DNA from: an uncultured Clostridia bacterium
GTDB lineage: Bacteria > Bacillota > Clostridia > Christensenellales > QALW01
Direction: 5' to 3'
DNA: 64,000 nt
NCBI GenBank assembly: GCA_934465535.1
Contig: CAKSKV010000004.1
Coordinates: 41,715-105,714, forward strand
Under the pieces are notes generated by a model. It saw nothing but the letters and a program-made list of their open reading frames with translations, had not been told where the DNA came from and made no database searches. Position numbers and translations under genes: made by a program. Below are positions 6,844 through 64,000 of this stretch, piece after piece. Positions within the stretch are counted from its first letter, which is position 1. Each line of letters opens with the position of its first letter.

Positions 6844-6897
6844 CGGTTCGTGCCCCGGCTTTGGGGAAGTGCGGCAGAGCCGGACAAAAAGCGCTTT

Positions 6898-8057: not shown

Positions 8058-8359
8058 TTTTCCCTCCGAAGCATAAGGAACAATCCCGGCTGCGCCGCAT
8101 CTGCGGCGCTGTGTGTTTTATTAAAGGCGACTTTATTACGGCAGTTACAGCGGGATTTATAACAGCATTATAACAATATAACAACAAATATATATGCGGA
8201 CGGAAAGACAAATATGCAAGCAAATAATGAATATCCGGCGCGGATAAAACGCATCAAATATAAAAATCAGAAATATAAAAATATAGTGTTGCGCCGCAAT
8301 CATACGATGATTATACAAAAAGCATAAAGCATGCACCGCCGCCCGGCATCCGGCATAAA

Positions 8360-9610: not shown

Positions 9611-9654
9611 ATGCTGCTTGCGGGATAATCGGCACGACCGGCAAGGCATAAAGG

Positions 9655-9685
9655 AAAAAGCTCCGAAAAAACTCGGAGCTTTTTT
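9655..9685. terminator. bidirectional terminator between convergent genes
   Basis: AAAAAGCTCCGA / TCGGAGCTTTTT perfect stem flanked by an A-run and a T-run. Confidence 0.7.
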
Positions 9686-9745
9686 GATATATTTGCTTTT
9701 TTGCAGTTTGCATTTTACCTTCTTGCCATCGGGGTTTTGCCCGAC

Positions 9746-10555
9746 TTAATCGGCTATGGCCGGGGGTGTAAAGCCTTTGAAGGTGAAGGAAATGCTGCTT
9801 TGCTGGATTTTTATAAGAGAATTATCCGCCGTGCTGTAATACATATAGGTGGCGGTGCTGGTAAAGGCGGTATTGGGGCGCACTACAACGGCATAGCACT
9901 CCACTTCGTTGTCATTGGCGTCCTTTATGCTGGTTACCTCGGCAACGGTAAGGCACATGCTCTGTACGGAATCGCGATTGGAGGAGGACAGAGTGAAGTT
10001 GAGCTTAAGGTCTTTATAGAGCGACAGGCAGCTGATAACAAAGGGCAGGGTTTCGGAATCGTAATACTGGCTGCTCACATTTACGGTGTAATCGCTGGTG
10101 GTCATTTCGTTGCTGTTATCGGGATACTGCTTTACATGAATCTCGATTTTTCCCTGGTTGAAGAGATGGTCGACATTCACGGAAACATTCTGTTGGGTGT
10201 TATCGTTGTTTTTATAATCCATGCTGACGGACACCGGTGACATTTCGGTGCGCCCGTTTTCCTTCTGACCAAGAAGGATATTGACGGAATCGATGCTTTC
10301 GGCGCCCTTTTCGCCGTGGCTTTCTATGCGTATACGCTCCCTGCCGCTTTCGTCGGTGTATTTTGAAACGGTATAAACGGTGTCGTAATCAGAGGCGACA
10401 TCGCCGTTTACCTGTCTTGTGGCAAAGGTGTATTGACCCTCCTTAAGCTTGGAAACATCCAGCTGAAGCATATCGTTCTCAGGCGCGGCGCAGCCGCAGC
10501 AAAGCACGAGCAGCGCAGAGGTAAGCAGCGCGACAAGGCCGGTTTTCTTTTTCAT
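9746..10555 (-). CDS. hypothetical lipoprotein
   Basis: Signal peptide with a Cys-containing lipobox-like end (LLVLCCGCA). No recognisable catalytic motif. Confidence 0.6.
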   Translation of the reverse strand: MKKKTGLVALLTSALLVLCCGCAAPENDMLQLDVSKLKEGQYTFATRQVNGDVASDYDTVYTVSKYTDESGRERIRIESHGEKGAESIDSVNILLGQKENGRTEMSPVSVSMDYKNNDNTQQNVSVNVDHLFNQGKIEIHVKQYPDNSNEMTTSDYTVNVSSQYYDSETLPFVISCLSLYKDLKLNFTLSSSNRDSVQSMCLTVAEVTSIKDANDNEVECYAVVVRPNTAFTSTATYMYYSTADNSLIKIQQSSISFTFKGFTPPAIAD

Positions 10556-10793
10556 ACGGATCTCCTTTTTGCCGTGCCCGGTAAGGCGCGCCCGAAAGGC
10601 GCTGCACTCGGTAAAACGGCGGGGGAATTATTTATATGGTTTATTATAGCATCAATGCGGCAAAACATAAAGAGAATTTTTTATAAACAGTGCATTTCAG
10701 ATGCCGGAAAACAGAAGCAGAAGCATAAAGCCCGCATTATAAAGCACAGGCCGCGGTTTTTTTCCGCGGCCTGTCGTGAAAAGGGCTTATAAG

Positions 10794-13007
10794 TTATTTT
10801 CTGCGCTTGCGGAAGAACACGGCTATAAGCACGGAGGCGCCGATAACCACCACCGCAATGGGAATAAGCATCCAGTGCAGCCCGAAGGGGACCTGAACCT
10901 GCTCTCCCGGCTCGGCGGTAGGCTGCTGTGTCGGAGGCGGCGTTACGGGATCGGAGGATTTTGCAAGCACGCTTGCCGCATCGGGCTGCCCCACTGCGTC
11001 ATCCACGGTTTTGCGATTGGGCGCGGTGTTGGTGGTTATGAAGGAAACGCCCTTGCGTGCGGTTTCCAGCATGGCCTTGCCGCCGTCCACCGTCCACATA
11101 TTTACAAGGGCGCCCCTGTGGGCAAGCGCGCGTGTTGCAGCGGCGGTCAATGCGCTGCTGGGACTGTATGAGCCGCCTGCGGAGGAGGTTTGGATATAGA
11201 AGGTTTCCAGGGATTTGACGGTGCCGTCGCCCTGAGCGTTTACCAGCAGGGAGGCGCCCACCTCCGGCATTTCCTCGCGGGATTTTTTGATTTGGTTGGG
11301 ATAAAAGCTGATTATTACTATGCGGTCCAGCATGCCCTTCTCGCGGGCAAGCTCGCTTATAAGGCGGGCGCATTTTGCCTTTTTGCTTTTTATTTCTATT
11401 ACCAGCATAAGGTCGTTGTTTTTCATTTCGTCAAAGAACTCGTCAAGGAAGGCGAAGTGCGCGCTGTTGTATTTGCCCACGGTGCGCAGGGTATATTCCT
11501 TGAGCTGCTCCCGCGTAAGGCGCTCCACATTTACATTGTCATTAGAGGTGGTATAGCCGCCCGTGGTGCCGTTATGGTTTATTAACAGATGGCCGTCGGA
11601 GGTTACATATACATCACATTCCACGGCATCGGCGCCTGCGGCTGCCGCTTCGCGCATACCCTCAACGGTGTTTTCCGGAGCAAGGGAGGGAACGCCGCGG
11701 TGCGCCACTATGAAGGGACGGCGCACAAAGGCCTCGCCCTGATCCACGGAGGAGAAAAGCTCATAGGCCTTGGCGTGGTCGGAAACCACAACATGGTTTG
11801 CGCCGCAGTCCAACGCCGCGCGCACTGCGGAATCGTCGGAGGTGTTTTCTTCAGGGCGCAGCATTACGGAGAGGAAGCGCGCCTGAAAATACTCGGCCTG
11901 CTCGCGGGTAACGGAGGACACCACCGCGATGTCGGCGTTTGCGCTGTGCACGGCAAATGCGCCCTCCGCGCCGGTTTTATCGGTTATAAGACCCTTGCGC
12001 ACCCCATTGGCGGATATTTCGCCAAGCACCTCAGCCGATGCGGAAACCACTATGAAATCGGTTTCGCCGCTTTGCTTTATGTATTCCTGAAGCTCCTGAG
12101 CCTGCTGCCGGCTGTCAAGCCGGAGCACGGGTATGATTCTTAAGCGGCAGGCGGCAAATATATCGGAAAGGGAGACGCCCTCAATCTTTGAAAGGTCAAA
12201 CCACGCAGCCTGAGTGGGAGCATCCTTGCTGAGGGAGGCTATGCCCTCCTTTGAGGAGATGTATTCCACAACGCTGGGGGGAGCTATAATGCCGGTTTCC
12301 GGCTCGTACACCATGCGGACGGTATCGCTTGCAGGCTCCTGACGATCCGCTATTTCGGCCGTTTTGGAAATGCGCACGGCATACACGCGCAGAACCGCCG
12401 CATTGGTTTGCAGGGCAAAGCCGCCGGCATCGGTAAGAAGGGCGGAATCGGTATAAAGCAGCTCCTGTCCGTTTATGCTTTGGGTGATCTTGCTGCCATC
12501 GCACACTATTTTGGCCGTATATATCTTATCCGGCGATATGCTTTCCGAAAAAGCGCCCTTGCCGTTATACTGCCAGGAGCCGCCGTTATCCTTGCAGGCG
12601 ATCTCCACGCCGTTTGCGGCCGCAGCGCCCCGCCGTATGCACATTTGCATATAAGGCTTGGGATCGGCGCCGGCGCCCGTCATTCTGTACATAAAGGATA
12701 TCCATCGGGTATCCTCGTTTGCGGAGGCTATGGTGAAATCCACCTCCATGGTGAAATCGGCAAGCTTTTCGCCGTCGGGAAGGTTTATGCTTGCTATACT
12801 GCTCTGTTCAAGCTGTACATAGCCGTTTTGAGCGCTGGCCTTGCCCGTAAGCACCGTAAGGGCCGAGGGCAGTGTATCTCCCGCTTTAAGGGAGGTGAAA
12901 TCGGCGTTAAGACAGTAGTCTTCGTCCTGTGCCGCAGCAGCGAAGCTAAAGCAGCCCAGCAGCATTACCAGTGCCGTCAGTGCACAGAGTAGCTTTGTTT
13001 TTCTCAT
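10794..13007 (-). CDS. glycerophosphodiester phosphodiesterase-family surface protein
   Basis: Signal peptide (start set at ATG 13007, MRKTKLL). GDPD blocks VAHRGVPSLAPENT and VECDVYVTSDGHLLINHN. C-terminal Pro/Thr linker, TM anchor and RKRRK. Confidence 0.8.
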   Translation of the reverse strand: MRKTKLLCALTALVMLLGCFSFAAAAQDEDYCLNADFTSLKAGDTLPSALTVLTGKASAQNGYVQLEQSSIASINLPDGEKLADFTMEVDFTIASANEDTRWISFMYRMTGAGADPKPYMQMCIRRGAAAANGVEIACKDNGGSWQYNGKGAFSESISPDKIYTAKIVCDGSKITQSINGQELLYTDSALLTDAGGFALQTNAAVLRVYAVRISKTAEIADRQEPASDTVRMVYEPETGIIAPPSVVEYISSKEGIASLSKDAPTQAAWFDLSKIEGVSLSDIFAACRLRIIPVLRLDSRQQAQELQEYIKQSGETDFIVVSASAEVLGEISANGVRKGLITDKTGAEGAFAVHSANADIAVVSSVTREQAEYFQARFLSVMLRPEENTSDDSAVRAALDCGANHVVVSDHAKAYELFSSVDQGEAFVRRPFIVAHRGVPSLAPENTVEGMREAAAAGADAVECDVYVTSDGHLLINHNGTTGGYTTSNDNVNVERLTREQLKEYTLRTVGKYNSAHFAFLDEFFDEMKNNDLMLVIEIKSKKAKCARLISELAREKGMLDRIVIISFYPNQIKKSREEMPEVGASLLVNAQGDGTVKSLETFYIQTSSAGGSYSPSSALTAAATRALAHRGALVNMWTVDGGKAMLETARKGVSFITTNTAPNRKTVDDAVGQPDAASVLAKSSDPVTPPPTQQPTAEPGEQVQVPFGLHWMLIPIAVVVIGASVLIAVFFRKRRK

Positions 13008-51628: not shown

Positions 51629-52047
51629 AGTTATAACCGCTTTCCCGAAGCATAAGGCTTCGCAGAGTAAGAATAAAACCGTTTCGGGCGCATAAAAAGC
51701 GCTTCGGCGGCATTTTTACGGTATGAATTTTATCATAAATAAGCCGTAAAAGAATGTGCAATCTGTAAACAATGCCGTTTTGCCCGATATTTTGGGCAAA
51801 AGACGAGCAAAAACATGCGCAAAAACGCAAAAAGCAGGGTTTATGTGCAGTTTGCACATTGAATACGCAAAGGAAATGAGTTATTATTATAATTGAATAA
51901 GTATGCCGGAGAACCGATTTACCGGTAGGAGCGCCACCGGGAATGCAGCAGCAAAAATGCGCAAAAACGCAGCGGCCGCCCATGCGCGGTTCCGTTTTGG
52001 GGAGCGGACGGGCACGGCAAAAAGAAAAGAGAAGGAAAGAAAACAAA

Positions 52048-54141
52048 ATGAAGCAAGGAAAAAAACTGCTGAGCATTATGCTGGCGATGCTTATCGCGGC
52101 CTTGGCCTGCGGGCTTACCGGCTGCATTAAGGCGCCGGGAGAGAGCGTAAGCGCAGAGGCAACACAGACTCCCGATACCGCCTTAAGCCCGGAGGCCACA
52201 CTTGACACAACTCCGTATACAACTCCCGGCGATACTCCCGATATAACGCCCGGCCCCACTCCGGCGCAAAGCGAAACCGTGCAGCCGCAGGATACCGAAT
52301 CTCCCGCGCCCACGCCCACGCCCGCTCCGGGAGATACCGGCGCGCCCGCACCGGGACCCACGGTATCCCATGCGCCGGTCAGCAAGTGGGATTATTATGT
52401 AACCTACGGCTCCGCCTCGATACGCACCGTTGCGCTTACCCGCTTTAACGACGGCACGCAGGGCGGCGGCGAAGGCAGCTTTACCTTTACCGGCGACGGG
52501 CTTTTAATAAAGCAGCAAAACGGCGCCTATGCCGATACCTACGGCATATATTCCGGGGCGAATCTGGGGTCGGCTGATTATTCCAAAGTGCGCTATGTGG
52601 GAATAACGGTTAAAAACCTTGAAAGCCACGATGTGCTTTTCGGGCTTCAGGGAACAGACAAAAATAGAAAGAATATATTTCTCTATCCCGAGGGCGATCC
52701 GATAGCTCTTGCTTATGACAACGGCGATATAAAGGCGGCCGGCGGTCAGGGCGGCGTGAACGGGCGCTATTGCATAGTGCTGCCCGCGGGCTTCTCCGGC
52801 AGCGTGTTTATCCCGCTTAACCGCATAGCGGACAGTCACGAAAAGGACAAGGCAAAGCAGTGGGCCAAAACCCCCATAACAAGCCCCGGCTTCCATTTAA
52901 GCGACGGCGGCAGCAAGGGAGTGCTGGTTTCGGCGCTGTTTATCTGCTCCTCTGCCCTGAAGGCTCCCGATGAGGCGGCGGGCGGCATTACAAACAAGGA
53001 CTACACCTATACCGAGGCTCAGCGCATTGCGGCCTTCTGGAAGAATTCCACAATGTACAACGAGTCCATCACCATGATGAAGCGTTCAAACGGCGAAATA
53101 TATGCAAAGACCCTGTTTGTGCCCACCAAGATAAACGCGGTGGTGGATGTGTACCTCCAGAAGGAATACAAGGAGGGCGTGGACTGGGAATGGGTAAAGG
53201 GCACAAACAAAATAAAGTGGCTCTCCGGCTCCTCCATTCCCTATTTTACGGATAACGACCTTTCCGGCAAGGATTCAAAGGGCAATTATATTCCGGAATT
53301 CCCCACATGGTCGGACGGCGGACGCAGCCGCTTCGGAAACGCGCTGTACTGCGTAAGCTCCTTCCTTTATGAAAAGCAGATATGCATAAGCTACACCTAC
53401 GATACGGCGCAGGTGGCAAAGCAGGGCATAAAATACACGCAGTATCAGGGCGATAAGCTGAAAAACACGGTGAACAAGCTTAAAAACGGCGAAAACCTGA
53501 AGGTGCTGTTCTACGGGGATTCCATATTCTCCGGCTGCGACGCCTCCGGCATGTATAACAGGGAGCCGTATATGCCCTATATGCACAAGCTTATACAGCA
53601 GGAGCTTTCCCGCAATACCAAGGGCAAGGTGCAGGTGGACAACTTGGCCGTGGGCGGCTGGACCGTGGAAAACGGACGGGACGCGCTTTCCGGCGAGGTG
53701 GGCGGATATAATTACTCTAATAAATACAAGGGCTACGACCTGCTTATACTCTCCTTCGGCATGAACAACGCGAGCACCCCCAAGGAGGAATATAATCCCG
53801 TAACCAAGGAATATGAAGGATATGTTCCGGCGACCAAGGCCATTGTGGATAAAATAAAGGCGGCAAACCCGAACCTTGAGGTGATACTGGTTTCCTGCAT
53901 GAACCCAAACCCCCGCGTGGGCTGGGATGTAAACCAGAAGAATCAGGGCGGATGGCTTAAGGAAATAGCGGCGCAAAGCCCGTATTCCTCCTATACTGCG
54001 GTGGTGGATTTCTATGCGGTGCACAAGAGCATACTTGCCTATAAGGATTTCAGCGCCACTACGGGCAACAACATAAACCATCCCAATGACTGGCTTATAC
54101 GCGTGTATGCGCAGAATATTCTTGCGGCGATGATAAAATAA
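52048..54141 (+). CDS. SGNH/GDSL hydrolase-family lipoprotein
   Basis: Start at ATG 52048. Lipobox LTGC, long Pro/Thr linker, then SGNH blocks FYGDSIFSG (block I), GMNN (block III), NINHPND (block V). Confidence 0.8.
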   Translation: MKQGKKLLSIMLAMLIAALACGLTGCIKAPGESVSAEATQTPDTALSPEATLDTTPYTTPGDTPDITPGPTPAQSETVQPQDTESPAPTPTPAPGDTGAPAPGPTVSHAPVSKWDYYVTYGSASIRTVALTRFNDGTQGGGEGSFTFTGDGLLIKQQNGAYADTYGIYSGANLGSADYSKVRYVGITVKNLESHDVLFGLQGTDKNRKNIFLYPEGDPIALAYDNGDIKAAGGQGGVNGRYCIVLPAGFSGSVFIPLNRIADSHEKDKAKQWAKTPITSPGFHLSDGGSKGVLVSALFICSSALKAPDEAAGGITNKDYTYTEAQRIAAFWKNSTMYNESITMMKRSNGEIYAKTLFVPTKINAVVDVYLQKEYKEGVDWEWVKGTNKIKWLSGSSIPYFTDNDLSGKDSKGNYIPEFPTWSDGGRSRFGNALYCVSSFLYEKQICISYTYDTAQVAKQGIKYTQYQGDKLKNTVNKLKNGENLKVLFYGDSIFSGCDASGMYNREPYMPYMHKLIQQELSRNTKGKVQVDNLAVGGWTVENGRDALSGEVGGYNYSNKYKGYDLLILSFGMNNASTPKEEYNPVTKEYEGYVPATKAIVDKIKAANPNLEVILVSCMNPNPRVGWDVNQKNQGGWLKEIAAQSPYSSYTAVVDFYAVHKSILAYKDFSATTGNNINHPNDWLIRVYAQNILAAMIK

Positions 54142-54381: not shown

Positions 54382-56121
54382 ATGAAAAACATCAGAAGCG
54401 GCGCATTTTTCGCGCCCTGCGGAAAAAAGAGCGGAAAAAGCGGAATAAAGCTGGATTATGTGGAGCCCACCGACCCCAAGGCGGGCAATACCGTGGCGCA
54501 TGCCGCCGTAAGCAAGTGGGATCAGACCTTTTCCTACGGCGATGCCTCGATAAAATGCACCGCACTTACCCGTTTTAACGACGGACAAATCGCTGCGGGC
54601 GAAAAAAGCGAGCAGGGGCTGCGCCTTACGGGCAGCGGCTTAAAGAAGGGCATAATAACCGGCGCAAACCTTGATTATGATTGCAGCGAGGCGGAGTATT
54701 ATGCAATATCGCTGTGCAATAACGGCAAAAAAGCGCTTATAGGCCTTGATGCGGATATTGAGGCGGACAAAGCAGTGCTGGCGCCGGAAAACGGAGAGCC
54801 GGAGGCGGTGCAGGCCGAAAAATGCGAAGGGATAAATGCCGCAGTGCTGCCCGAGGGCTTTAAGGGCTGCGTGCTTTTCCCGGTTAAAAACGCAAGGGAG
54901 AGCTTCGGCAGCGTTGATATAGCCTGGAGCGGCGATGTTACGCTGTGCGCACTGCTTATGTGCGATACGCCCCTTGAAATGCCGGGGCAGGGCAGCAAAA
55001 TAACAAACCCGCTGTACAGCTACACCGACAAACAGCGTATGCAGCCGTTTTGGGAGTGCTCCACCATGTATAATGAATCCATGGGCATGATGAAGCGGGA
55101 GGACGGCAGCATATGGGGCAAGCTGCTGTTTGTACCCACCCGCATAAACGCAGTGGTGGATGTATATCAGAAAAAGGAATATAAAGAGGGCAAGGACTGG
55201 CAGTGGATAGAGGGCACGAACCGAATAGTGCGCCCCGAAGGCTCGGATATTCCGTACTTTACGGAAGAAGGTCTTTCCGGCAAGGAGGAAAACGGCGAGT
55301 TCATTCCGGAATTCCCGACATGGACGGACGGCAGAAGCCGCTTCGGCGCCTGCCTGTACTGCGTGACGGATTTCATATATGAAAAGCAGATATGCGTATC
55401 CTATGAGTATGATTTAAGTCAGGTAAAGAGCGAGGGCATTGCAAGCACGCCGTGCCAGAGCGAGCGCCTTGTGCGCACAAATGCACGCCTTAAAGAGGGC
55501 CGCGACCTGAAGGTGCTGTTCTACGGGGATTCCATATTCTCCGGCTGTGACGCCTCCAGCATGTATAACAGAGAGCCTTTTATGCCCTATATGCATAAGC
55601 TTATAGAAAGCGCACTGGCCTCAAGAAGCACAGGGCGGGTGCGGGTGGACAACTTGGCCGTGGGCGGCTGGACCGTGGAAAACGGACGGGACGCACTTTT
55701 CGGCGATGTGGGCGGACACGATTATTCCAAGAGCTACAAGGGCTACGACCTTATGATACTTTCCTACGGCATGAACAATGCCTATACCCCCGAGGAGGAA
55801 TTCAAGGCGGCCACCCAAAAGATAATGGAAACGGTAAAAGAGGCAAACCCTGATATTGAAATAGTGCTGGTTTCCTGCATGAACCCCAACCCCCGCGTGG
55901 GCTGGGATGTAAACCAGAAATATCAGGGGCAGTGGCTTAAGGACATTGCCCAAATGCCTGCATGGCAGGAGCGCACGGCGCTTGTGGATTTCTATCAGGT
56001 GCATAAGAGCATACTGGTCTATAAGGATTTCAGCTCCACTACGGGCAACAACATAAACCACCCCAACGATTGGCTCATACGCGTGTATGCGCAGAATATA
56101 GTGCGGGCCATAACAGAATAG
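54382..56121 (+). CDS. SGNH/GDSL hydrolase-family protein (paralog lacking a signal peptide)
   Basis: Collinear with the upstream gene from VSKWD..ALTRFNDG to ..NINHPNDWLIRVYAQNI, with the same SGNH blocks. No lipobox or linker. Confidence 0.8.
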   Translation: MKNIRSGAFFAPCGKKSGKSGIKLDYVEPTDPKAGNTVAHAAVSKWDQTFSYGDASIKCTALTRFNDGQIAAGEKSEQGLRLTGSGLKKGIITGANLDYDCSEAEYYAISLCNNGKKALIGLDADIEADKAVLAPENGEPEAVQAEKCEGINAAVLPEGFKGCVLFPVKNARESFGSVDIAWSGDVTLCALLMCDTPLEMPGQGSKITNPLYSYTDKQRMQPFWECSTMYNESMGMMKREDGSIWGKLLFVPTRINAVVDVYQKKEYKEGKDWQWIEGTNRIVRPEGSDIPYFTEEGLSGKEENGEFIPEFPTWTDGRSRFGACLYCVTDFIYEKQICVSYEYDLSQVKSEGIASTPCQSERLVRTNARLKEGRDLKVLFYGDSIFSGCDASSMYNREPFMPYMHKLIESALASRSTGRVRVDNLAVGGWTVENGRDALFGDVGGHDYSKSYKGYDLMILSYGMNNAYTPEEEFKAATQKIMETVKEANPDIEIVLVSCMNPNPRVGWDVNQKYQGQWLKDIAQMPAWQERTALVDFYQVHKSILVYKDFSSTTGNNINHPNDWLIRVYAQNIVRAITE

Positions 56122-56327: not shown

Positions 56328-56403
56328 GGGGGTGTAGCTCAACTGGTAGAGCGCTTGAATGGCATTCAAGAGGTAAGGGGTTCGACCCCCCTCATCTCCA
56401 CCA
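56328..56403 (+). tRNA. tRNA-Ala (anticodon GGC)
   Basis: Folded by hand: acceptor GGGGGTG/CATCTCC with the G3:U70 Ala identity pair, D-arm GCTC-AACTGGTA-GAGC, anticodon arm CTTGA-ATGGCAT-TCAAG, variable loop AGGTA, T-arm AGGGG-TTCGACC-CCCCT, discriminator A and an encoded CCA. Confidence 0.9.
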
Positions 56404-56476
56404 AACAGGTATTGGACGAACACCTATTTCTTCAGCGGCGGTTTCGCCGTAAAGGTGATGCTCTAATACGAAACAG

Positions 56477-56514
56477 AAACCGCCATCTTAGATTAGGTTC
56501 TAAGGTGGCGGTTT
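56477..56514 (+). terminator. hairpin terminator after the tRNA
   Basis: AAACCGCCATCTTAG..CTAAGGTGGCGGTTT, a 15-bp stem with one G-U pair. The T residues lie partly within the stem. Confidence 0.5.
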
Positions 56515-56608
56515 TACATATAAGCAAGTCATTTGAAAATCAAGCCAATATCTGTAGTAATAAAATACAGAATAGTATTGAGTGTACACGAAATAAGGAG
56601 AACTATTT

Positions 56609-56869
56609 ATGTGGGAAAATATTGATATTGATAGGCATTACACGGGAGTGTTTCAAATTTTAGATGAACCAATATCGGGAGAATTGATTTATAATAAGCA
56701 AAATGGTACTATACTTTTAAGTCTAATAAAGGAAGTAAACTCGAAATCATTTTTCGGAAAAAGTTATGGCACACAACCGATTATTACCGGCAAGCTGAAC
56801 ACAGGTGCGGTAGTGACTCTTTTTAACAATCGGTGCAGTAACAACCATATTCATTGGTTACAAGACTAG
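56609..56869 (+). CDS. hypothetical 86-aa protein, probably a 5' gene fragment
   Basis: Good RBS (AAGGAGA). The sequence ends abruptly after ..VTLFNNRCSNNHIHWLQD and is followed by non-coding AT-rich DNA. Confidence 0.35.
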   Translation: MWENIDIDRHYTGVFQILDEPISGELIYNKQNGTILLSLIKEVNSKSFFGKSYGTQPIITGKLNTGAVVTLFNNRCSNNHIHWLQD

Positions 56870-56965
56870 TACGTTTTTTCTTTCTCGTTTTTTTTGTACA
56901 GGTCAAGATAAACACAAATATTCCGCTCTGATTTTATACTTATTTAAAGATTAGACAAAAAAGTC

Positions 56966-56994
56966 TTGACAAATACAGATGCGCCCATCATAAT
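56966..56994 (+). promoter_or_regulatory. candidate promoter at the head of the island
   Basis: TTGACA, 17-nt spacer, CATAAT. Confidence 0.4.
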
Positions 56995-57194
56995 ATACTT
57001 AAGAAATAAACTATCAAAAGACTTGGCCTTTTAAAAAAGAAGACAAAATCATATAGTTGCGTGATCGAGTGTCATAAAAAACATATTATTATACTGTAGT
57101 TTATTTTGATATATGAAATAATTCTTTAAAAGAGTTATGTGTAGTATAAAGCAAGAAAACAAAACTAATAAGTTTGGCATTGGAGAAACATATT

Positions 57195-57314
57195 ATGTTA
57201 AAGCAATGGCAAATATCGTTTGATGATGGATTATCGCCCTCATTATGTCTTTACGCAAATTTGAATAATGATAAGTTTAAAGCACACAATTATGTTGATC
57301 CGGTTACGGACTAA
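57195..57314 (+). CDS. 39-aa sORF MLKQWQISFDDGLSPSLCLYANLNNDKFKAHNYVDPVTD
   Basis: GGAGA lies 8 nt before the ATG. The 3' end of the ORF sits inside a long hairpin. Coding status is uncertain. Confidence 0.2.
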   Translation: MLKQWQISFDDGLSPSLCLYANLNNDKFKAHNYVDPVTD

Positions 57315-57338
57315 CATAATGGTGTGCTTTTTGTGTTT
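57279..57338 (+). terminator. terminator/attenuator-like hairpin upstream of the cluster
   Basis: AAAGCACACAATTATG (57279-57294) pairs with CATAATGGTGTGCTTT (57315-57330): 16 bp with one mismatch and a 20-nt loop, followed by TTGTGTTT. Confidence 0.45.
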
Positions 57339-57452
57339 AAAAATTACTTGCTGTTTTAGTTACTCAAGAGTGATGCTTAGGCAGCTTCGCAGCGTGCAGA
57401 GGTAGCGGGAAGCAGGATGGGTTCGCAGTATTATATGTGAGGAGAACGGTAT

Positions 57453-57950
57453 GTGGATGCAATTGAATGTATAAAGACAAGGCGCAGCGTTCGGCGCTAT
57501 ACCGATCAGCCGATTGACAAACAGGCAATACATCAAATTCTTGAAGCCGGCATCAGCGCTCCGTCCGGTAAAAACGGTCAGCCATGGAAATTCAAAGTTG
57601 TAACCGATAAAGAATTGATAAACAACATATCTGATTTATCGATTCATGGTTCATGGATGAAAACGGCACCGCTGATTATTGTGATATTTCTTGATAACGC
57701 CTGTTCATATGACCGACTGAAAGATATTCAATCCTGTGGAGCGGTTATGCAAAATATGATGTTAACCGCACACTCTCTTGATATCGGAAGCTGTTGGATT
57801 GGCGAAATACTGCCTAAGTCAAAAGAAGTAAAGCAAGTTTTGAAACTTAATGATGAAAGCCTTGAACTCATGGGAATTGTACTATTCGGACATAAATCGA
57901 GCCGAATGATTGATCCGGGGCGAAAGAGAATTGAATCGTTTCTGTTGTAA
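57453..57950 (+). CDS. nitroreductase-family flavoprotein
   Basis: RRSVRRYTDQPI and SAPSGKNGQPWKF motifs. GTG start 8 nt after GAGGAG. Confidence 0.85.
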   Translation: MDAIECIKTRRSVRRYTDQPIDKQAIHQILEAGISAPSGKNGQPWKFKVVTDKELINNISDLSIHGSWMKTAPLIIVIFLDNACSYDRLKDIQSCGAVMQNMMLTAHSLDIGSCWIGEILPKSKEVKQVLKLNDESLELMGIVLFGHKSSRMIDPGRKRIESFLL

Positions 57951-57962
57951 CGGCGGTATGGT

Positions 57963-59303
57963 ATGAGCAGAATTGCTTTGATTGGCGAGAACTCTATTGA
58001 ATATGTAAGTACACTGCTTGATATATGGAATTCTGGAGATTGCGCAGTATTGATAGACTGGCGGATACCGATTCAGACTGCAGTAGAAATGATGAATGAA
58101 GCCGAAGTGCATGTCTGTTACATCGAGAAAAAATATTACGGCAAAGTTTCCGGCGCGCGGTCTCAATGCATTACATTTATTCCTTTTGAGAAAAAGGCAA
58201 CTGCCGCAGGGCATCTGCCGGAATCAGTATATGATAGGTTCAAACCAAACTACAGCAAAAACGAAGCGGTTGTTTTATACAGTTCCGGAACAACAGGAAA
58301 ATCCAAAGGAATAATTCTTTCGCACTTTGCAATTAACACAAATGCCGATGCAATCATTGACTATATGAAACCCAATGCGGGAGATTGTATTTATATCGCA
58401 AAAACATTCTCTCATTCATCAACACTTACAGGAGAATTGCTGGTATCGCTTAAAACTCAAACCAAGCTTGTAATCGCGCCAACGATTGTTCCTCCGAGAT
58501 ATATGCTGGGAAAGATAAGAGAATTCAATGTTACAATAATATGTTTGAATCCGACATTACTTTCAATGCTTGCGAATGAAGTGCAACGAGACAAGTATGA
58601 CATTCCTTCGCTCAGAACGATATATGTCAGCGGCTCCATCTTGAACAATACGACCTATGTAAAAGCTCATGACACATTTAGAGATATACCGGTTTACAAT
58701 GTATACGGCTTGTCCGAAGCAGGGCCGAGAGTTGCAGCGCAGCGTGAAGGATGTTGCTCATCAAATTCAGTTGGAAGTCCGATTCTGGGCGTAGAAATAG
58801 TCATTGTCGATGAAAATGGAACACCGGTTACTGATGGGGAGCGCGGAACCGTTCATGTGACTACACCGAGTCAATTCTGCGGCTATATATCCGGACAAGT
58901 AAAGCAGCAGTCCATGTACAGGGATTGGCTGAATACCGGCGACATCGGGTATATCAACGATAACGGTGAATTGCATATTACCGGTCGTGTTGATGATGTA
59001 ATTGTTTTGGATGCACACAAAATTTATCCGTGCAAAATTGAAAATACTATCCTTGAATCGACTAATGTTTCTGAATGCGTCGTCGTAAAGGTTGAGTATA
59101 AGGATAACGAGTTTATTGGTTGCTTATATGTCGGGAATGATATTTCAGAGCAAGAAATAAGGGACAAGCTAAAAAACAAGCTCCCAACCTACGAAATCCC
59201 GAGGCGCTTTATACGATGCAATACAATTCCTCGAACATTAAACGGCAAAATATCCAACGCAGATATAAGAGAGAAAATAGTAAATGCTATAGAAATGGAG
59301 TAA
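57963..59303 (+). CDS. AMP-forming acyl/aminoacyl ligase (ANL superfamily)
   Basis: LYSSGTTGKSKGI (A3), YGLSEAGP (A5), TGDIGY and ITGRVDDVI (A7/A8), LNGK (A10). Confidence 0.85.
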   Translation: MSRIALIGENSIEYVSTLLDIWNSGDCAVLIDWRIPIQTAVEMMNEAEVHVCYIEKKYYGKVSGARSQCITFIPFEKKATAAGHLPESVYDRFKPNYSKNEAVVLYSSGTTGKSKGIILSHFAINTNADAIIDYMKPNAGDCIYIAKTFSHSSTLTGELLVSLKTQTKLVIAPTIVPPRYMLGKIREFNVTIICLNPTLLSMLANEVQRDKYDIPSLRTIYVSGSILNNTTYVKAHDTFRDIPVYNVYGLSEAGPRVAAQREGCCSSNSVGSPILGVEIVIVDENGTPVTDGERGTVHVTTPSQFCGYISGQVKQQSMYRDWLNTGDIGYINDNGELHITGRVDDVIVLDAHKIYPCKIENTILESTNVSECVVVKVEYKDNEFIGCLYVGNDISEQEIRDKLKNKLPTYEIPRRFIRCNTIPRTLNGKISNADIREKIVNAIEME

Positions 59304-59307
59304 AGAA

Positions 59308-59592
59308 ATGACAACAGAAGAGATAAAAACAGAAGTAATTGATTTGATTTCCGAATTGTTCGGGGACAAGGGTTTTGACACCGACATCATTGAATATGCC
59401 GATTTAGTCGATGACATGGGCATGGATTCAATAACCTTCATTTCGATTGTCGTCGAGCTTGAGGTAAAGTTTGATATTACTGTGTCGGATGATATGTTGC
59501 TGATAGATAACTTCAAGAAAGTCGATGATATTGTAGCTGTTGTCGAAAATGAACTGGCGAAAGGAGCTGAAAACGGCGATGGCTGTAAATGA
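59308..59592 (+). CDS. acyl/peptidyl carrier protein
   Basis: 94 aa. DMGMDSITFISIVVELE contains the phosphopantetheine Ser in a D-S-(I/L) context. Confidence 0.8.
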   Translation: MTTEEIKTEVIDLISELFGDKGFDTDIIEYADLVDDMGMDSITFISIVVELEVKFDITVSDDMLLIDNFKKVDDIVAVVENELAKGAENGDGCK

Positions 59593-60820
59593 AGAAAAGC
59601 TTGTTAAGATGCTAAGATATGTATCTGAGTATAACGATTTTTACAAGAACAGAATAAAAGAATACGGAATAACAAATCCGTTGGATATTACGCAATGGCC
59701 TGTTCTGACAAGGAAAGAGTTGCAAGAAAACCGGTATAATATGTTCTCGGATGGGTATAAGTCAAAGTATTTTAATCAGCAGCTCCGCAGACAGTCATCA
59801 TCCGGTTCATCCGGAATGCCGGTTAACGTCTATTGGGATTACAAAGACTGGTATGCATCAAATATGTCATTATGGCGCAAAAGGTGGCAGTGGTATGGTA
59901 TTAAGCCGGGCGACAAATATGTTATGTTTACATTGAATGCATTCAATGTAAAAGTGAACGGCGAGACTGTCTACTATATCAAAAAACCCGAGAATGTTCT
60001 GTCGGTCAATGTTTCTTTGATTCAAAATGAAGAGCAGTACAAAAATCTTGTTGATATCATGAACGATTTTAATCCTGCGTGGCTATATATTCAGCCTTTT
60101 GTACTTAATAAACTGATTCAAATCTACAAGAAATATGATTTGAAAAAGCCGACTGCTCTTAGATATATTGAATCCGTTGGTGAATTGCTATCATCAGATT
60201 TAAGAAGGCGGGCAATTGAATTCTTTGATGTTGCATTTGCCAATATGTATGGCTCAGAAGAAATGAACGGTATTGCGTATGAGTGTCCAGAATACCATAT
60301 GCAGGTGCTTAATGATAACATATATATTGAGGTTCAGAATAATAATGGCATTAGTCTAAGCGGAGACGGTGAGGCGATTATAACTAATTTGAATAATTTT
60401 GCTATGCCACTTATACGGTATAATCAATGCGATTGTATTGTTGTAGATAATTCTCAACCATATTCATGTGTAAATAACAGAAACATTATTTGTCATATCA
60501 ACGGAAGATCTTCTGATTGTATTGCACTGGGTGATAAAGAAATCAACAGCTATTTTTTAGTTGAAATACTATCAGAAACAAATAATCATTATAATGGTAT
60601 AATTGATTTTTATCGTTATGTGTATAAAAAATCTCAAAGAAAAATTGAATGTATGATAAATACAAAGAAAACTGAGTGGTATAGCAATATTAAAAAAACT
60701 TTGGAGGACATCTTTATAAAACAAGTCTTGCCTGATACCGATATTAGTTTTGAGGTCAAATTGGACAAAGAGGCTTTGCTTTATGGAGAGAAACCTCAAA
60801 TACTAACAATAGTTGATTAA
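59579..60820 (+). CDS. PaaK/F390-synthetase-like adenylate-forming enzyme
   Basis: SSGSSGMPV P-loop-like motif and YGSEE.., with the overall length and pattern of the phenylacetate-CoA ligase/CapK family. The start is uncertain (TTG 59540, ATG 59549 or ATG 59579) and overlaps the carrier gene end. Confidence 0.75.
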   Translation: MAVNEEKLVKMLRYVSEYNDFYKNRIKEYGITNPLDITQWPVLTRKELQENRYNMFSDGYKSKYFNQQLRRQSSSGSSGMPVNVYWDYKDWYASNMSLWRKRWQWYGIKPGDKYVMFTLNAFNVKVNGETVYYIKKPENVLSVNVSLIQNEEQYKNLVDIMNDFNPAWLYIQPFVLNKLIQIYKKYDLKKPTALRYIESVGELLSSDLRRRAIEFFDVAFANMYGSEEMNGIAYECPEYHMQVLNDNIYIEVQNNNGISLSGDGEAIITNLNNFAMPLIRYNQCDCIVVDNSQPYSCVNNRNIICHINGRSSDCIALGDKEINSYFLVEILSETNNHYNGIIDFYRYVYKKSQRKIECMINTKKTEWYSNIKKTLEDIFIKQVLPDTDISFEVKLDKEALLYGEKPQILTIVD

Positions 60821-60906
60821 TCAATTGATCAAATCTATTTCAATTACTATTTAACGTACAATAAAATTGTATGTTAAAGATATAACTAAAACACAAGGAG
60901 AGTAGT

Positions 60907-62256
60907 ATGAGTGTCTTTGAAAATGATACCCCTGTTGTTAAGACATTCGTGTACAAGAATAAATGTTATTTATATGATACATATAATAATCAGCTCTTTT
61001 CTGTACACAGTAGACTTTATTACGAAATTTGCAAAATGCAAACAATAGGTATTTGTAAATATATGCATTTAAATTGTAATGATAATTACTATAAAGATGT
61101 GTTAACATTAATGAATAAGGGGTACTTACGCCATGGATTCATTGACAAAGTCCAGCATCAGTCAACACCTTATATAGAGTATCTAACAGAGCGTTGTATG
61201 AGTCATTTAGTTCTTGAGGTAACAAATTCATGCAATTTTAAATGTAGATATTGTCACCAAGCGAGTAATCAAACTATAAATAAAAAAGTAATGAACACAA
61301 ATGTAGCATATCGCAGTATTGACTTGTTTTATGAACATTCAAAGGATGCGAATGATTTAGTATTGACCTTTTATGGCGGTGAGCCACTTATTAATTTCAA
61401 TTTAATAAAAGAAATGGTTATGTATGCGAAAGATAAGTTCAAGACAAAAAGGGTTTCATTTAATATAACAACAAATGCATCCTTAATTGATGAGGAAATA
61501 ATCGATTTTTTATATAGTAATGGCTTTTCAATTTTAATAAGTTTAGACGGAGATGAAGTGATTCAAAACAGTCATCGAAAGTTTCTAATAGATGGTGGAG
61601 ATACTTTTGATATTGTATGGAATAATATTCTTAAAATTCGCGCCAAATATCCCTCGTTTTTCAACTCGAATGTAAGTTTCAATTCTGTAAGATTGCAAGA
61701 CGAATCAAGAAGAAAAGTAGTAGAGTTTTTTAGAAAAAATGGTATATCTGATTCGTCAATTAGTATTCGTGATGCAGATATGGACGGCATTGATTATATA
61801 TATTCGCCGTTGTTTATAGATGCCAATAATAGAGATGATGACAGTATTAACAAAGATGATTTTTCTAACGTATTAAAGTTATATAACAACAAAAGTAAGA
61901 TACCAAAGGTATGGCATCATAATGGACCTTGTATACCAGCAGTAAATCGTCTGTTTGTCAGCACGGAAGGAAAGTTTTATCCATGCGAAAAAGTAGAACA
62001 AGATGATGCGTGTTCCATTGGAGACTTAGCAACAGGTGTTGATATTGACAAAGTGGTGCGAATCTTAAACATTGGCCAGATTACGAGTAATGATTGTCCG
62101 AATTGTTGGGCTTTAAGATTTTGCTCGATATGTGTGCATCGTTGCGTTGATAACGGGAGTTTATCGTACGATAAAAAAGTTAGATCTTGTAAAAAAACAA
62201 AAGAAGATGCAATAAGATTTTTTAAATATCTTATAGATAATAAACAGGTGAAGTAA
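60907..62256 (+). CDS. radical SAM peptide maturase with SPASM-type C-terminal domain
   Basis: SCNFKCRYC (CxxxCxxC), FYGGEPL, and a C-terminal Cys cluster GPCIPAV..GKFYPCEK..CPNCWALRFCSICVHRC. RBS AAGGAGA. Confidence 0.9.
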   Translation: MSVFENDTPVVKTFVYKNKCYLYDTYNNQLFSVHSRLYYEICKMQTIGICKYMHLNCNDNYYKDVLTLMNKGYLRHGFIDKVQHQSTPYIEYLTERCMSHLVLEVTNSCNFKCRYCHQASNQTINKKVMNTNVAYRSIDLFYEHSKDANDLVLTFYGGEPLINFNLIKEMVMYAKDKFKTKRVSFNITTNASLIDEEIIDFLYSNGFSILISLDGDEVIQNSHRKFLIDGGDTFDIVWNNILKIRAKYPSFFNSNVSFNSVRLQDESRRKVVEFFRKNGISDSSISIRDADMDGIDYIYSPLFIDANNRDDDSINKDDFSNVLKLYNNKSKIPKVWHHNGPCIPAVNRLFVSTEGKFYPCEKVEQDDACSIGDLATGVDIDKVVRILNIGQITSNDCPNCWALRFCSICVHRCVDNGSLSYDKKVRSCKKTKEDAIRFFKYLIDNKQVK

Positions 62257-62299
62257 ATAGTAAATATCTGTAATAAAGAAGGAAGGGATAGCTTTGCAA

Positions 62300-63172
62300 A
62301 TGGAAAATATAGGTTTGCTAACTAATTCGATTACGGCTCGTATGTTAATGTATCAAATTGATTATGTGTTAAACATACCTGTGAAAAATATCTATGTTTT
62401 ATCTGAAAACCATAATAAAAGCGAAATATTTCCTACTAGCGGCGCAAAAGTAACTATATGTGACTCATATGATGAGTTCATACAAAAAAGTGAATTGATA
62501 ATTACTTCAAACAAGCAAGAAACGTTAGCGCATATTGACAACAGAAAACTTCTATTTATTGATAGCCCTTGGAATGGTTATGAAAATCATAGCATGAATG
62601 GTTGTTTAACTAAAAAGCTTAATTATTCGAATGCTCCTGTTGTTTTTATATTATCAATTGGCGATTTTACCGATCAATATCACATTGAAATACTTGTCAA
62701 TAAAATCGTAGCCTCGAAAACAAAAAGAATAGCACAAATTTTTACCCCGGAAACAAAAGCATTACTAGATAGTATCGCTAAATCAAAAAACATAAATCCC
62801 AATTTAGTAAATGCATGCAATAATAATGATGGTGATGTAATTATTATTTCTGCAAATAATATATCGAATGATTTAGAATTGATACAAATTATAAAAGAAA
62901 TATCTCCGGATTACTTTATCTTATGTGTTGATTACTCATTTAACGGATTAAATGAGGTTGAGTTATTCTTTTCAAATATTTGTAAAATAAATATTGTTGT
63001 CCAATCTCCCTATATTACAAATAAATTGTTGGAAGGAAAACAATGGTCTGTTTATTGTAATGTAGAAAAATCCAATGTCTTCCATAATACATTGGAAAAA
63101 GATTTCGAAAACTACTTGGAATTACACATTATGCAGAAAATATTCATGCCTAACAGTATTGGCTTTGTATAA
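62300..63172 (+). CDS. hypothetical protein of the peptide-maturation cluster (possibly TIGR04066-like)
   Basis: 290 aa with no motif I recognise. Its position between the rSAM and precursor genes matches my recollection of the clostridial TIGR04066 family. ATG 62300 follows GAAGGAAGGG. Confidence 0.6.
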   Translation: MENIGLLTNSITARMLMYQIDYVLNIPVKNIYVLSENHNKSEIFPTSGAKVTICDSYDEFIQKSELIITSNKQETLAHIDNRKLLFIDSPWNGYENHSMNGCLTKKLNYSNAPVVFILSIGDFTDQYHIEILVNKIVASKTKRIAQIFTPETKALLDSIAKSKNINPNLVNACNNNDGDVIIISANNISNDLELIQIIKEISPDYFILCVDYSFNGLNEVELFFSNICKINIVVQSPYITNKLLEGKQWSVYCNVEKSNVFHNTLEKDFENYLELHIMQKIFMPNSIGFV

Positions 63173-63198
63173 CATTTGAAAATTGAAAAGCGGAATAG
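63170..63198. repeat. left arm of a perfect 29-bp inverted repeat
   Basis: TAACATTTGAAAATTGAAAAGCGGAATAG. It begins with the stop codon of the upstream gene. Confidence 0.9.
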
Positions 63199-63215
63199 TG
63201 GAAGGAGGTGAAAAA

Positions 63216-63386
63216 ATGTTTTTGAAGTCTGATAACAACAATGATTTTATAACAAGATCGTGTTGTTCTCCTACCTGCCAGTGTGGTACTTGTGGTGGTG
63301 TTTCAACTGCAGAATCAAAGGGGCGTAGCGGAGCTACTAGCAGTGGTGGAACCGTTGTTTCTGCCCAAAGCCCAACGTCTGCATAA
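63216..63386 (+). CDS. 56-aa Cys-rich RiPP precursor candidate
   Basis: MFLKSDNNNDFITRSCCSPTCQCGTCGGVSTAESKGRSGATSSGGTVVSAQSPTSA. GGAAGGAGGTG lies 7 nt upstream. It sits beside the rSAM/SPASM enzyme and an exporter. Confidence 0.65.
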   Translation: MFLKSDNNNDFITRSCCSPTCQCGTCGGVSTAESKGRSGATSSGGTVVSAQSPTSA

Positions 63387-63423
63387 GCAGACTAATAGCA
63401 TTATGATAAGTATAGTTTATTAC

Positions 63424-63452
63424 CTATTCCGCTTTTCAATTTTCAAATGTTA
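63424..63452. repeat. right arm of the perfect 29-bp inverted repeat
   Basis: CTATTCCGCTTTTCAATTTTCAAATGTTA, the exact reverse complement of 63170-63198. Confidence 0.9.
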
Positions 63453-63478
63453 ATAATAAGTGAAAGCGTGGCGAAATA

Positions 63479-64000
63479 ATGAAGGATAAAATAAATCATT
63501 TCCTTAAAGCCGAATGGTTTTGCCTAAAACAGATTTTTAAAACAGATTTTTTAAACGGCTTGGTTTTTTTAATTATTACTGGGATAAAATATGCAATTCC
63601 GCTTATCAGCGTGTGGTTATGGAAAATAATACTTGATGAATTGACCTTAATCTACCAAACAAAAGCAGCAAGCAATGATATATGGATATATCTCGGAATA
63701 TATCTTGTGATTCAAATGTTTTCGTCTGTCATTGTTCAAGTGAACTCAGTTATTTACGCAAAAGTAAGGCGAAAAGCATCATATGAGCTTGACATGGCAA
63801 TCATGCGGAAGATGGCGCAAATTGATTCCGCTTTCTTTGACGATCCGGAAAACAAGGATGTAACAGAAGCGGCACGGACAAGCGAAGGATATATCGCACT
63901 TAATATGCCGTGGGCGATTGATACGATTATCCGGATCATTACCTTTATTTCGGGTCTTGTTATGTTTCTTTCCTATGACTGGATTGTCGGGTTGATTTAC
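63479..64000 (+). CDS. ABC exporter permease/ATPase, 5' part (truncated by the window end)
   Basis: Open frame from ATG 63479 to the window edge (MKDKINHFLKAEWF..). It has exporter TMD features (hydrophobic helices, ..MRKMAQIDSAFFDDPE..) and no C39 peptidase-like N-terminus. Confidence 0.75.
   Translation, partial: MKDKINHFLKAEWFCLKQIFKTDFLNGLVFLIITGIKYAIPLISVWLWKIILDELTLIYQTKAASNDIWIYLGIYLVIQMFSSVIVQVNSVIYAKVRRKASYELDMAIMRKMAQIDSAFFDDPENKDVTEAARTSEGYIALNMPWAIDTIIRIITFISGLVMFLSYDWIVGLIY

Follow-up and report, generated by a model that had tools for sequence, protein, structure and literature searches.

At the right end of a 64,000-nucleotide stretch of DNA from an uncultured Clostridia bacterium (contig CAKSKV010000004.1, positions 41,715 to 105,714; the whole stretch is referred to as the window), we analysed an operon that seems to make a ribosomal, cysteine-rich peptide modified by a radical S-adenosylmethionine (rSAM) enzyme. 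An earlier note on this DNA, made by reading the sequence, had described eight co-directional and tightly packed genes in AT-rich DNA, and all eight open reading frames (ORFs) were recovered on the plus strand, with intergenic gaps of -14 to +92 nucleotides (nt). The operon starts with a gene for a nitroreductase-family flavoprotein (57453–57950, 165 amino acids (aa), GTG start; PF00881, 115 bits), followed by genes for an adenylate-forming enzyme of the ANL superfamily (57963–59303, 446 aa; PF00501, 158 bits, and PF13193, 35.6 bits), a phosphopantetheine carrier protein with the attachment serine in a GMDS motif (59308–59592, 94 aa; PF00550, 31.9 bits), and a PaaK/F390-synthetase-like ligase (59579–60820, 413 aa from the ATG that matches its homologues; assigned by comparison with PDB and NCBIfam), which overlaps the carrier gene by 14 nt. 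These are followed by a CcpM-like rSAM/SPASM peptide maturase (60907–62256, 449 aa; TIGR04068 as best family, together with its cysteine motifs), a partner protein of about 290 aa, here called U292 (start at 62294 or 62300 and end at 63172, giving 292 or 290 aa; apparently a remote TIGR04066 homologue), the putative precursor peptide MFLKSDNNNDFITRSCCSPTCQCGTCGGVSTAESKGRSGATSSGGTVVSAQSPTSA of 56 aa with five cysteines (63216–63386; an ORF whose position is kept in relatives), and the first of two genes for an ATP-binding cassette (ABC) exporter, of which the N-terminal 174 aa are encoded (63479–64000) before it runs off the window.

The same cassette was found in relatives. Our locus set comprised 17 distinct loci, three of which (L007, L008, and L009) were reached via the nearest rSAM relatives and 14 by scanning a single genome of each species for motifs conserved in the PaaK-like protein. 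All 17 revealed a colinear order of ANL enzyme, carrier, PaaK-like ligase, rSAM enzyme, ~290-aa protein, small cysteine-containing ORF, and ABC gene. In the scan of species representatives, the PaaK-like subfamily occurred only inside this cassette (14 of 14 loci confirmed), and a scan of viral contigs for the same subfamily yielded none. The nearest rSAM relatives were 53% identical to the enzyme of the window, with many more at 40–50%, and the loci stemmed from metagenome-assembled genomes (MAGs) of uncultured gut or rumen Clostridia, save one labelled Selenomonadales. Identity to the proteins of the window across loci was 44–66% for the PaaK-like ligase, which is the most conserved protein of the cassette, 49–61% for the ANL enzyme, 41–77% for the carrier, 37–50% for the rSAM enzyme, and 16–38% for the ~290-aa protein. 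Based on the colinearity in 17 loci, the trio of ligase, carrier, and ligase belongs to the cassette and is not a chance neighbour, as the earlier note had supposed. The nitroreductase, which the note had likewise counted as a cluster member, is present in the window, but its place in the core did not hold up: apart from the window type, a full-length homologue was detected only in L011 (55% identity), with fragments in L008 and L021 and a truncated copy in L001. Judged by this distribution, it is an accessory gene outside the conserved core.

Two arrangements link the PaaK-like enzyme with that half of the cassette which is specific to the peptide, as far as gene order and nucleotide identity go. 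Locus L015 harbored two tandem sets of PaaK-like, rSAM, precursor, and ABC genes (123–5713 and 5769–11018), with no second ANL or carrier gene between them and a U292 homologue detected only in the first set. Comparison of L007 (715–7504) with L009 (657–7484) revealed 87% nucleotide identity from the upstream genes via the ANL and carrier genes to the middle of the PaaK-like gene, beyond which nucleotide similarity was wholly lost, to be regained in the 3' part of the ABC gene (L007 12075–12986). This pattern places a recombination breakpoint inside the PaaK-like gene of these two loci, so that the exchangeable unit consists of the 3' part of the PaaK-like gene, the rSAM gene, the ~290-aa gene, the precursor gene, and the part of the ABC gene encoding the membrane domain. 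It fits a division of labor in which ANL enzyme and carrier supply a common donor, and PaaK-like ligase, rSAM enzyme, and exporter handle the variable peptide.

Some further features of individual loci may be recorded here. Directly upstream of the cassette, and in L007 (798–4759) and L009 (739–4697) only, proteins of 1015–1020 aa with a eukaryote-type RNA-dependent RNA polymerase domain are encoded (PF05183, 52.6 and 58.6 bits at a gathering score of 23.8), each accompanied by a partner protein of 300 aa. Loci L008 (1–16982) and L021 (2253–19224) were 99.0% identical over 17 kb; one source assigns the rSAM protein of L008 to Christensenellaceae, and the MAG containing L021 bears the label Selenomonadales, so their near-identity could reflect either a recent transfer or a binning error. 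In L035, an 83%-identical relative, the contig stops before the precursor gene.

The rSAM enzyme found its best family in CcpM (TIGR04068) with 362.3 bits at a cut-off of 500, and ten relatives scored between 334.7 and 382.6 bits on the same model. Scores on other families were 182 bits for PapB (cut-off 340), 124 bits for SCIFF (cut-off 425), and 71 bits for anaerobic sulfatase maturase. The best relative of solved structure was CteB (5wgg; E = 7e-28, residues 87–413), as compared with 1e-10 for an anaerobic sulfatase-maturating enzyme (anSME). PF04055 was matched with 61.6 bits; the Pfam SPASM model (PF13186) gave no match in the rSAM protein of the window and was recorded for some homologues. 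The protein carries CNFKCRYC at residue 109 (CX3CX2C), CX12GX4C at residue 342, and CX2CX5CX2C at residue 397, and the CX3CX2C motif together with the SPASM motifs (CX9-15GX4C, CX2CX5CX2-3C) was seen in 15 of 15 loci, i.e., the window and 14 relatives. The proposal of an rSAM/SPASM peptide-maturation cluster was thus borne out, CcpM scoring far above the sulfatase maturase family and CteB being the best solved relative, and the enzyme is not closest to a non-peptide family of the latter kind. The more specific proposal that the set of genes matches TIGR04065, TIGR04066, TIGR04068, and TIGR04069 was not supported by the curated models: besides the rSAM score given above, the carrier reached 17.4 bits on TIGR04069 (cut-off 70), and neither the ~290-aa protein nor the peptide of the window gave a match.

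Regarding the carrier and the two ligases, the carrier passed the gathering score of PF00550 (20.8 bits), and its attachment serine (Ser41 in GMDS) was invariant in all 15 loci, whereas the acyl carrier protein (ACP)-related proteins of two canonical CcpM loci (pCLOPA01 and pCM008-A) have no serine at the place where the carriers of the cassette show GxDS. Its best match in NCBIfam was AmcB (38.5 bits, cut-off 80), and the ANL enzyme matched AmcH (116 bits, cut-off 370). In the ANL enzyme, the core motifs SSGTTGKSKG, YGLSE, and TGD and the lysine of the C-terminal NGK are conserved across 11 related loci, the residues of SSGTTGK, YGLSE, TGD, and NGK being invariant, as is the histidine in the motif LSHSS. 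From motif A4, we infer an enzyme of the acyl- or aryl-acid type and not of the amino-acid-activating type, which contains aspartate at this place. The PaaK-like ligase was similar to phenylacetate-CoA ligases in PDB (E = 5e-17, residues 13–375) and to AjiA1 (4e-13), and its C-terminal lysine was invariant across loci. Its matches in NCBIfam, namely FlxY, DVU_1553, PaaK, and F390 synthetase, all remained below the equivalog cut-offs, and Pfam gave no match; by these comparisons, it is a member of the PaaK fold group that falls into no named family.

The position of U292 between the rSAM gene and the precursor is conserved in all loci. Word-index searches with this protein, even with an alignment of 14 sequences, returned near-identical copies only, but an exhaustive profile search revealed a family of about 200 clusters at 50% identity, all of about 300 aa. 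Sequence searches of the family against Pfam, NCBIfam, and PDB yielded noise save for weak matches to the TIGR04066 hidden Markov model in two of 14 family members (E = 1.2e-4), the protein of the window giving none. Alignment of the family with the TIGR04066 protein of pCLOPA01 using hhalign resulted in a probability of 95.6% (E = 1.3e-8, 202 columns). On the strength of this profile comparison, U292 is a remote homologue of TIGR04066, shorter and outside the model. Prediction of its structure by AlphaFold2 with an alignment of 114 clusters gave a predicted local distance difference test (pLDDT) value of 92.5 and a predicted template modelling score (pTM) of 0.92, displaying two alpha/beta domains; a single-sequence prediction reached a pLDDT of 36 and was not used. 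The best fold match was TM0796 (2g0t, annotated as "putative nucleotide binding protein"; E = 3.9e-5, TM-score relative to the query (TMq) 0.43), followed at lower TM-scores by Mur ligases and GTPase domains of the signal recognition particle (SRP) type. We do not assign U292 as an NTPase or a ligase, since these fold matches are weak (TMq of at most 0.43) and the family carries no Walker A motif (GK[ST]), the corresponding loop reading LSxGxxxQxY. Nearly invariant in the family are only E38, P115, E132, D206, S238, and P286. The strict pairing with the rSAM enzyme in both the cassette and the CcpM system suggests that U292 is an obligatory partner of that enzyme.

Between the ~290-aa gene and the ABC gene, every complete locus encoded a cysteine-containing ORF of 43–73 aa (18 ORFs in 17 loci), so that the small ORF of the window is not a chance ORF and, as the earlier note had expected, is kept beside homologous rSAM genes. 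Most of the deduced peptides open with an M-x-F-x-K-type motif (MFLK, MTFEK, MIFEK, MNFTK, etc.), which is followed after 15–20 residues by a cluster of two to six cysteines (spaced as CxC, CxxC, or CxxxC) and then by a hydrophilic tail of 20–35 residues rich in S, G, N, and Q, which ends with cysteine in one subgroup. None of ten precursors matched TIGR04065, the CLI_3235 family, at E values up to 10. The precursor gene of the window was found in identical form on at least 24 contigs and was co-oriented with its neighbours in all ten places listed.

Around the precursor gene lies a feature that the earlier note had missed, an inverted repeat whose two arms of 29 nt (left arm 63170–63198, right arm 63424–63452, plus strand) are 100% complementary. 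From the stop codon of the upstream gene, the left arm extends to a point 17 nt short of the precursor start codon, so that the ribosome-binding site is left inside the loop; the right arm starts 37 nt past the precursor stop codon. Minimum-free-energy folding yields the stem, with z = -7.4. The same kind of bracket, with arms of unrelated sequence, was found in L007 (10554–10569/10804–10819), L008 (10233–10265/10505–10537), L016 (4682–4711/4932–4961), and other relatives. For 14 of 18 precursor genes, the best repeat between both flanks beat at least 199 of 200 shuffles, and for 17 of 18 the flank duplex was more stable on the sense than on the antisense strand. No Rfam family matched the bracket. 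Most likely, then, the bracket forms an mRNA stem around the precursor message. Its role is probably in processing or stabilization: the stem would allow the precursor mRNA to be excised from the operon transcript or would protect it, so that the peptide is made in excess of the enzymes in spite of the mid-operon position of its gene.

The same arms might instead belong to a DNA inverton, in which a recombinase flips the segment of about 280 bp and thereby switches peptide production on and off. Arm lengths of 13–33 nt and a spacing of about 225–290 nt are indeed typical of invertons, and a truncated integrase gene is present in the island described below. Yet precursor and operon share one orientation in all 18 related genes as well as in all ten further assemblies of the window element, i.e., no inverted copy was seen in 28 cases; the arms are unrelated between loci, no recombinase is conserved with the cassette, and G-U pairs lengthen the helix preferentially on the sense strand. 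We therefore give the inverton only a slight chance and retain the mRNA stem.

The operon itself turned out to be part of a mobile segment, which had likewise escaped the earlier note. The sequence of the rSAM protein was identical on at least 23 public contigs, and a segment of about 13 kb (L002 5470–18859; the portion within the window extends from 56376 to 64000) showed 99.6–99.8% nucleotide identity between contigs whose left flanks were of three different kinds. In the window and in L002, its neighbour is a tRNA-Ala(GGC) gene (56328–56403 in the window, plus strand, detected by ARAGORN and by the Rfam tRNA model with 62.7 bits), which marks the junction of host and island; in L001, it is a tmRNA gene (5140–5491), and in L003 a tRNA-Ala(CGC) region (102–178). 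Homology between the window and L001 begins at window position 56376, within the 3' part of the tRNA gene, and in L001 within the 3' end of the tmRNA gene. At about 56.3 kb, where the tRNA gene sits, the GC content drops from about 53% to 30–40%. Since a near-identical segment occurs in three contexts, the cluster rides on an integrative island that spreads between genomes, and the position of the junctions suggests an element targeting the shared 3' ends of tRNA-Ala and tmRNA genes.

Contig L002, with the same left flank as the window, allowed the cluster to be followed past the window end, where a second ABC gene and two further genes lie that the earlier note had not covered. The first and second ABC proteins (ABC1, 601 aa, and ABC2, 594 aa) each combine an ABC_tran with an ABC_membrane domain and are devoid of a C39 peptidase domain at the N-terminus. 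They are followed by paralogous proteins of 321 and 313 aa and, on the opposite strand, by the truncated integrase gene. The 321-aa and 313-aa proteins (L002 16267–18157; also L003 16267–16599 and L005 13912–15604) share the motif NExYIPxK...HDxLLYGY, the histidine of which is kept in only one paralogue of each pair, and some copies of the island that are identical in other respects have these genes truncated or partly deleted. Relatives were found in L009, L017, L018, and L020, and probably also as a larger protein of 736 aa in L007; searches of Pfam, NCBIfam, and PDB gave no match. A BtrH-like identity was discarded, as BtrH_N appeared in one of eight members at E = 0.14, which is noise level.

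Regarding the surroundings of the operon, a terminator-like hairpin with arms of 24 nt, a loop of 4 nt, and a T-rich tail (57279–57330, plus strand, an inverted repeat recognized by sequence) lies about 120 nt upstream of the nitroreductase gene, and about 300 nt further upstream than the hairpin there is a near-consensus promoter-like site (TTGACA-17-CATAAT, 56966–56994). Together they may form a leader or attenuator region of the operon. Between the tRNA gene and the cluster, an ORF of 86 aa (56609–56869) matched the N-terminal domain of ApeA alone (PF18862, 35 bits) and is, by this partial match, a gene remnant. Just before the tRNA gene, the GC-rich host DNA encodes two paralogous large proteins of 732 and 579 aa with GDSL/SGNH lipase domains (51943–54141 and 54382–56121).

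Taking these data together, we propose that the operon makes a ribosomal, cysteine-rich peptide modified by the rSAM enzyme and that it represents a sister of the CcpM/CLI_3235 system that has diverged from it, borne by an integrative island with the 3' ends of tRNA-Ala and tmRNA genes as its targets; we put the probability of this reading at roughly 60%. In the proposed working, the rSAM enzyme would recognize the N-terminal M-x-F-x-K region of the precursor, whose three-part architecture is itself observed, and, going by its nearest families, would form thioether cross-links from the cysteines, of the sactipeptide or ranthipeptide type. U292 would act as its obligatory partner, in line with the strict co-occurrence of both. 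The ANL enzyme would adenylate a carboxylic acid, probably not an alpha-amino acid, and load it onto Ser41 of the carrier; both proteins are intact and co-conserved. The PaaK-like ligase might then join the carrier-borne group to the peptide or, instead, activate a peptide carboxylate. Any engagement of this ligase with the peptide is suggested by the single recombination breakpoint in L007/L009, the sole support for this step, where the 3' part of its gene travels with the unit from rSAM to ABC gene. Based on their domain content, the two ABC half-transporters, lacking a peptidase domain, would export the product, and the nitroreductase would be an optional tailoring enzyme.

Several points weigh against this reading. 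All of the cassette loci are metagenome assemblies. The formation of thioethers is assumed on the grounds of family resemblance, and in each named family the rSAM enzyme stays below the curated cut-off. The island encodes neither a phosphopantetheinyl transferase nor a condensation-type enzyme or known acyltransferase, and so offers no evident route by which the carrier-borne group would reach the peptide, and no leader peptidase is encoded there either, unless the 321-aa and 313-aa proteins, present only in some loci, serve as such. As the carrier-like protein of canonical CcpM loci is evidently non-catalytic, the carrier of the cassette may have a structural, non-catalytic role as well. With respect to the bracket, base composition explains about half of the difference in stability between sense and antisense strand; the remainder exceeds all 60 composition-preserving shuffles, which is supportive only.

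The point about the carrier leads to an alternative in which it is a non-catalytic chaperone or docking protein for the pair of rSAM enzyme and TIGR04066-type protein, and the ligases act directly on the peptide, e.g., by adenylating a side-chain or C-terminal carboxylate, to give a lactam, ester, or thioester ring with lysine or cysteine. Such a role would agree with the canonical CcpM loci, which retain an ACP-fold protein without the serine and without ligases, with the occurrence of stand-alone amide or ester ligases among PaaK-type enzymes (AjiA1, BagE/FevW, DdaG), and with the presence of Asp or Glu in many precursors and of a conserved lysine in their N-terminal motif. We nevertheless consider it unlikely, since a purely structural role would give no reason to expect a serine kept without exception in 15 of 15 carriers, and since the ANL gene, only a few nt upstream of the carrier gene, forms with it a classic loading pair, the best NCBIfam match of the carrier being a true ACP, AmcB.

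Two more distant alternatives concern what the ligases are for. The peptide might be a scaffold or the source of a modified residue, and the product a small molecule which, once set free from the peptide, becomes activated and is borne by the carrier, similar to the pearlins or to a hand-over from a peptide made ribosomally and modified after translation (RiPP) to a carrier. A ribosomal peptide feeding a non-ribosomal pathway reportedly has a precedent in a preprint (bioRxiv 10.1101/2024.07.12.603347), two activating enzymes and a carrier are present with no obvious transferase back to the peptide, and the cores are hypervariable next to strongly conserved ligases. Against this stand the absence from the island of any peptidase, condensation enzyme, or thioesterase that would release or pass on such a product, the resemblance of the ABC exporters to peptide and lipid exporters, and the divergence of the ABC membrane-domain part together with the precursor in L007/L009, which points to a peptide as cargo; the wide variation in number and spacing of the cysteines also fits a peptide better than a single small molecule. 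We thus leave the small-molecule product a small chance. That the ligase and carrier genes form an unrelated pathway merely adjoining a CcpM-like RiPP cluster has in its favor that canonical CcpM loci work without ligases, and nothing else. It is hard to reconcile with genes that are colinear and tightly spaced or overlapping in 17 of 17 loci from very different genomic contexts, with a PaaK-like subfamily that the scans of species representatives and viral contigs found nowhere outside the cassette, and with a breakpoint that falls within the PaaK-like gene and not between the two parts, so that we regard such an adjacency as scarcely credible.

Joining the proposed peptide pathway with the functions of its carrier and ligases, the operon might make a new class of hybrid peptide, in which an rSAM-cross-linked cysteine core is covalently decorated with an acid activated by the ANL enzyme, borne by the carrier, and coupled by the PaaK-like ligase; in that case, canonical CcpM, with its carrier turned into a non-catalytic partner, would either descend from it by reduction or represent a precursor form, and the bracketing stem would excise or stabilize the precursor mRNA. 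Taken as a whole, we put this forward tentatively and rather expect one or another of its parts to fail. If true, the conserved cassette of seven genes would join two chemistries that are normally separate, namely rSAM peptides and carrier-protein (thiotemplate) chemistry, and would open a compact and defined way to hybrids of a new type between peptide and small molecule. It could also explain why CcpM, so far purely bioinformatic, retains an "acyl carrier-related" protein. A precursor-to-enzyme ratio set by a stem would, if true, be a way that has not been described for such gene clusters, and if confirmed, the stem would be a simple rule for raising precursor mRNA in an operon, of use in genome mining and heterologous expression. 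The cassette occurs in uncultured Clostridia of the gut and rumen only, and since the island spreads between genomes at more than 99.6% identity, its product likely matters in gut competition or signalling.

Among known systems, maturases of the CteB (SCIFF) and PapB type are SPASM enzymes that link the sulfur of cysteine to a carbon of another residue; they come without a carrier, ligases, or a TIGR04066-type partner, all of which are found in the cassette. An adenylating enzyme encoded directly upstream of a free-standing carrier is shared with the AmcB/AmcH pair of the cispentacin pathway and other ANL-carrier pairs (e.g., DltA/DltC), but these pathways make small molecules or modify teichoic acid, with neither a ribosomal peptide nor an rSAM enzyme involved. 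Lipolanthines, goadvionins, and selidamides are acylated hybrid RiPPs, the acyl group of which is made or carried by separate machinery. They use modules of the polyketide synthase (PKS) or fatty acid synthase (FAS) type and acyltransferases of the GCN5-related N-acetyltransferase (GNAT) type and are not known to involve rSAM cross-linking, whereas the cassette encodes neither a PKS/FAS-type module nor a GNAT-type acyltransferase. For the bracket, the nearest likeness is with the stems of RNase III type that flank 16S and 23S rRNA and the early mRNAs of phage T7 within longer transcripts. In both cases, a long helix between the two flanks fully encloses the unit; the unit here differs in being a small peptide ORF in a biosynthetic operon, and its stem is predicted from sequence.

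The closest comparison remains that with the CcpM system. In Clostridium pasteurianum BC1, plasmid locus pCLOPA01 is ordered as CLI_3235 precursor, ccpM, TIGR04066 gene, a gene for a 98-aa protein, and S8 peptidase gene, and in Clostridium tagluense, pCM008-A carries an ABC gene, ccpM, and the TIGR04066 gene, followed by repeated pairs of precursor and ACP-related protein genes. An agr-type quorum-sensing set (LytTR regulator, kinase, autoinducer peptide, and AgrB) precedes the latter locus (L037 2053–4758). The SacP23 cluster of Paenibacillus polymyxa has the same core and no ANL or PaaK-like gene; SacP23 was expressed heterologously only, without a product structure (PMC10731318), and the product of the CcpM system is itself unsolved. 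In the literature that we searched, CcpM is otherwise mentioned only as an annotated family (PMC9062424), and no rSAM peptide cassette combining a carrier with two adenylating enzymes is described there. The earlier assessment that the adenylation/carrier trio is not part of any characterized member therefore stands, two adenylate-forming enzymes being present in the cassette and absent from all three canonical loci (pCLOPA01, pCM008-A, and SacP23).

Further differences from these loci are that all four components of the cassette fall below the curated cut-offs or give no match, that the carrier bears the phosphopantetheine serine lacking in the carrier-like proteins of pCLOPA01 and pCM008-A, that the partner protein has about 290 aa in place of about 360–370 aa, and that there is no S8 peptidase such as that of pCLOPA01. 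The precursor gene here lies inside the operon with a long stem around it, whereas pCLOPA01 has it in first place with a terminator-like hairpin behind it, and in pCM008-A, copies of it lie downstream. On the other side, the rSAM enzyme of the window is 33% identical to the canonical CcpM of pCLOPA01 over its full length, with rSAM and SPASM cysteine motifs identical in kind, and in both systems the rSAM gene is followed by one for a TIGR04066-related protein, if a remote one here. A small ACP-fold protein and an ABC exporter are likewise present in both, and the precursors share a layout of a short N-terminal region, a central cysteine cluster, and a long tail, opening with MSNFGKK or MKLLGKK in the CcpM loci and with MxFxK in the cassette. 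As a serine-bearing carrier and ligases are present here and absent from the canonical loci, the cassette is, by these sequence comparisons, a diverged sister of the CcpM system with a presumably functional carrier module, not a member of it by the curated models, the homology of both being real though remote.

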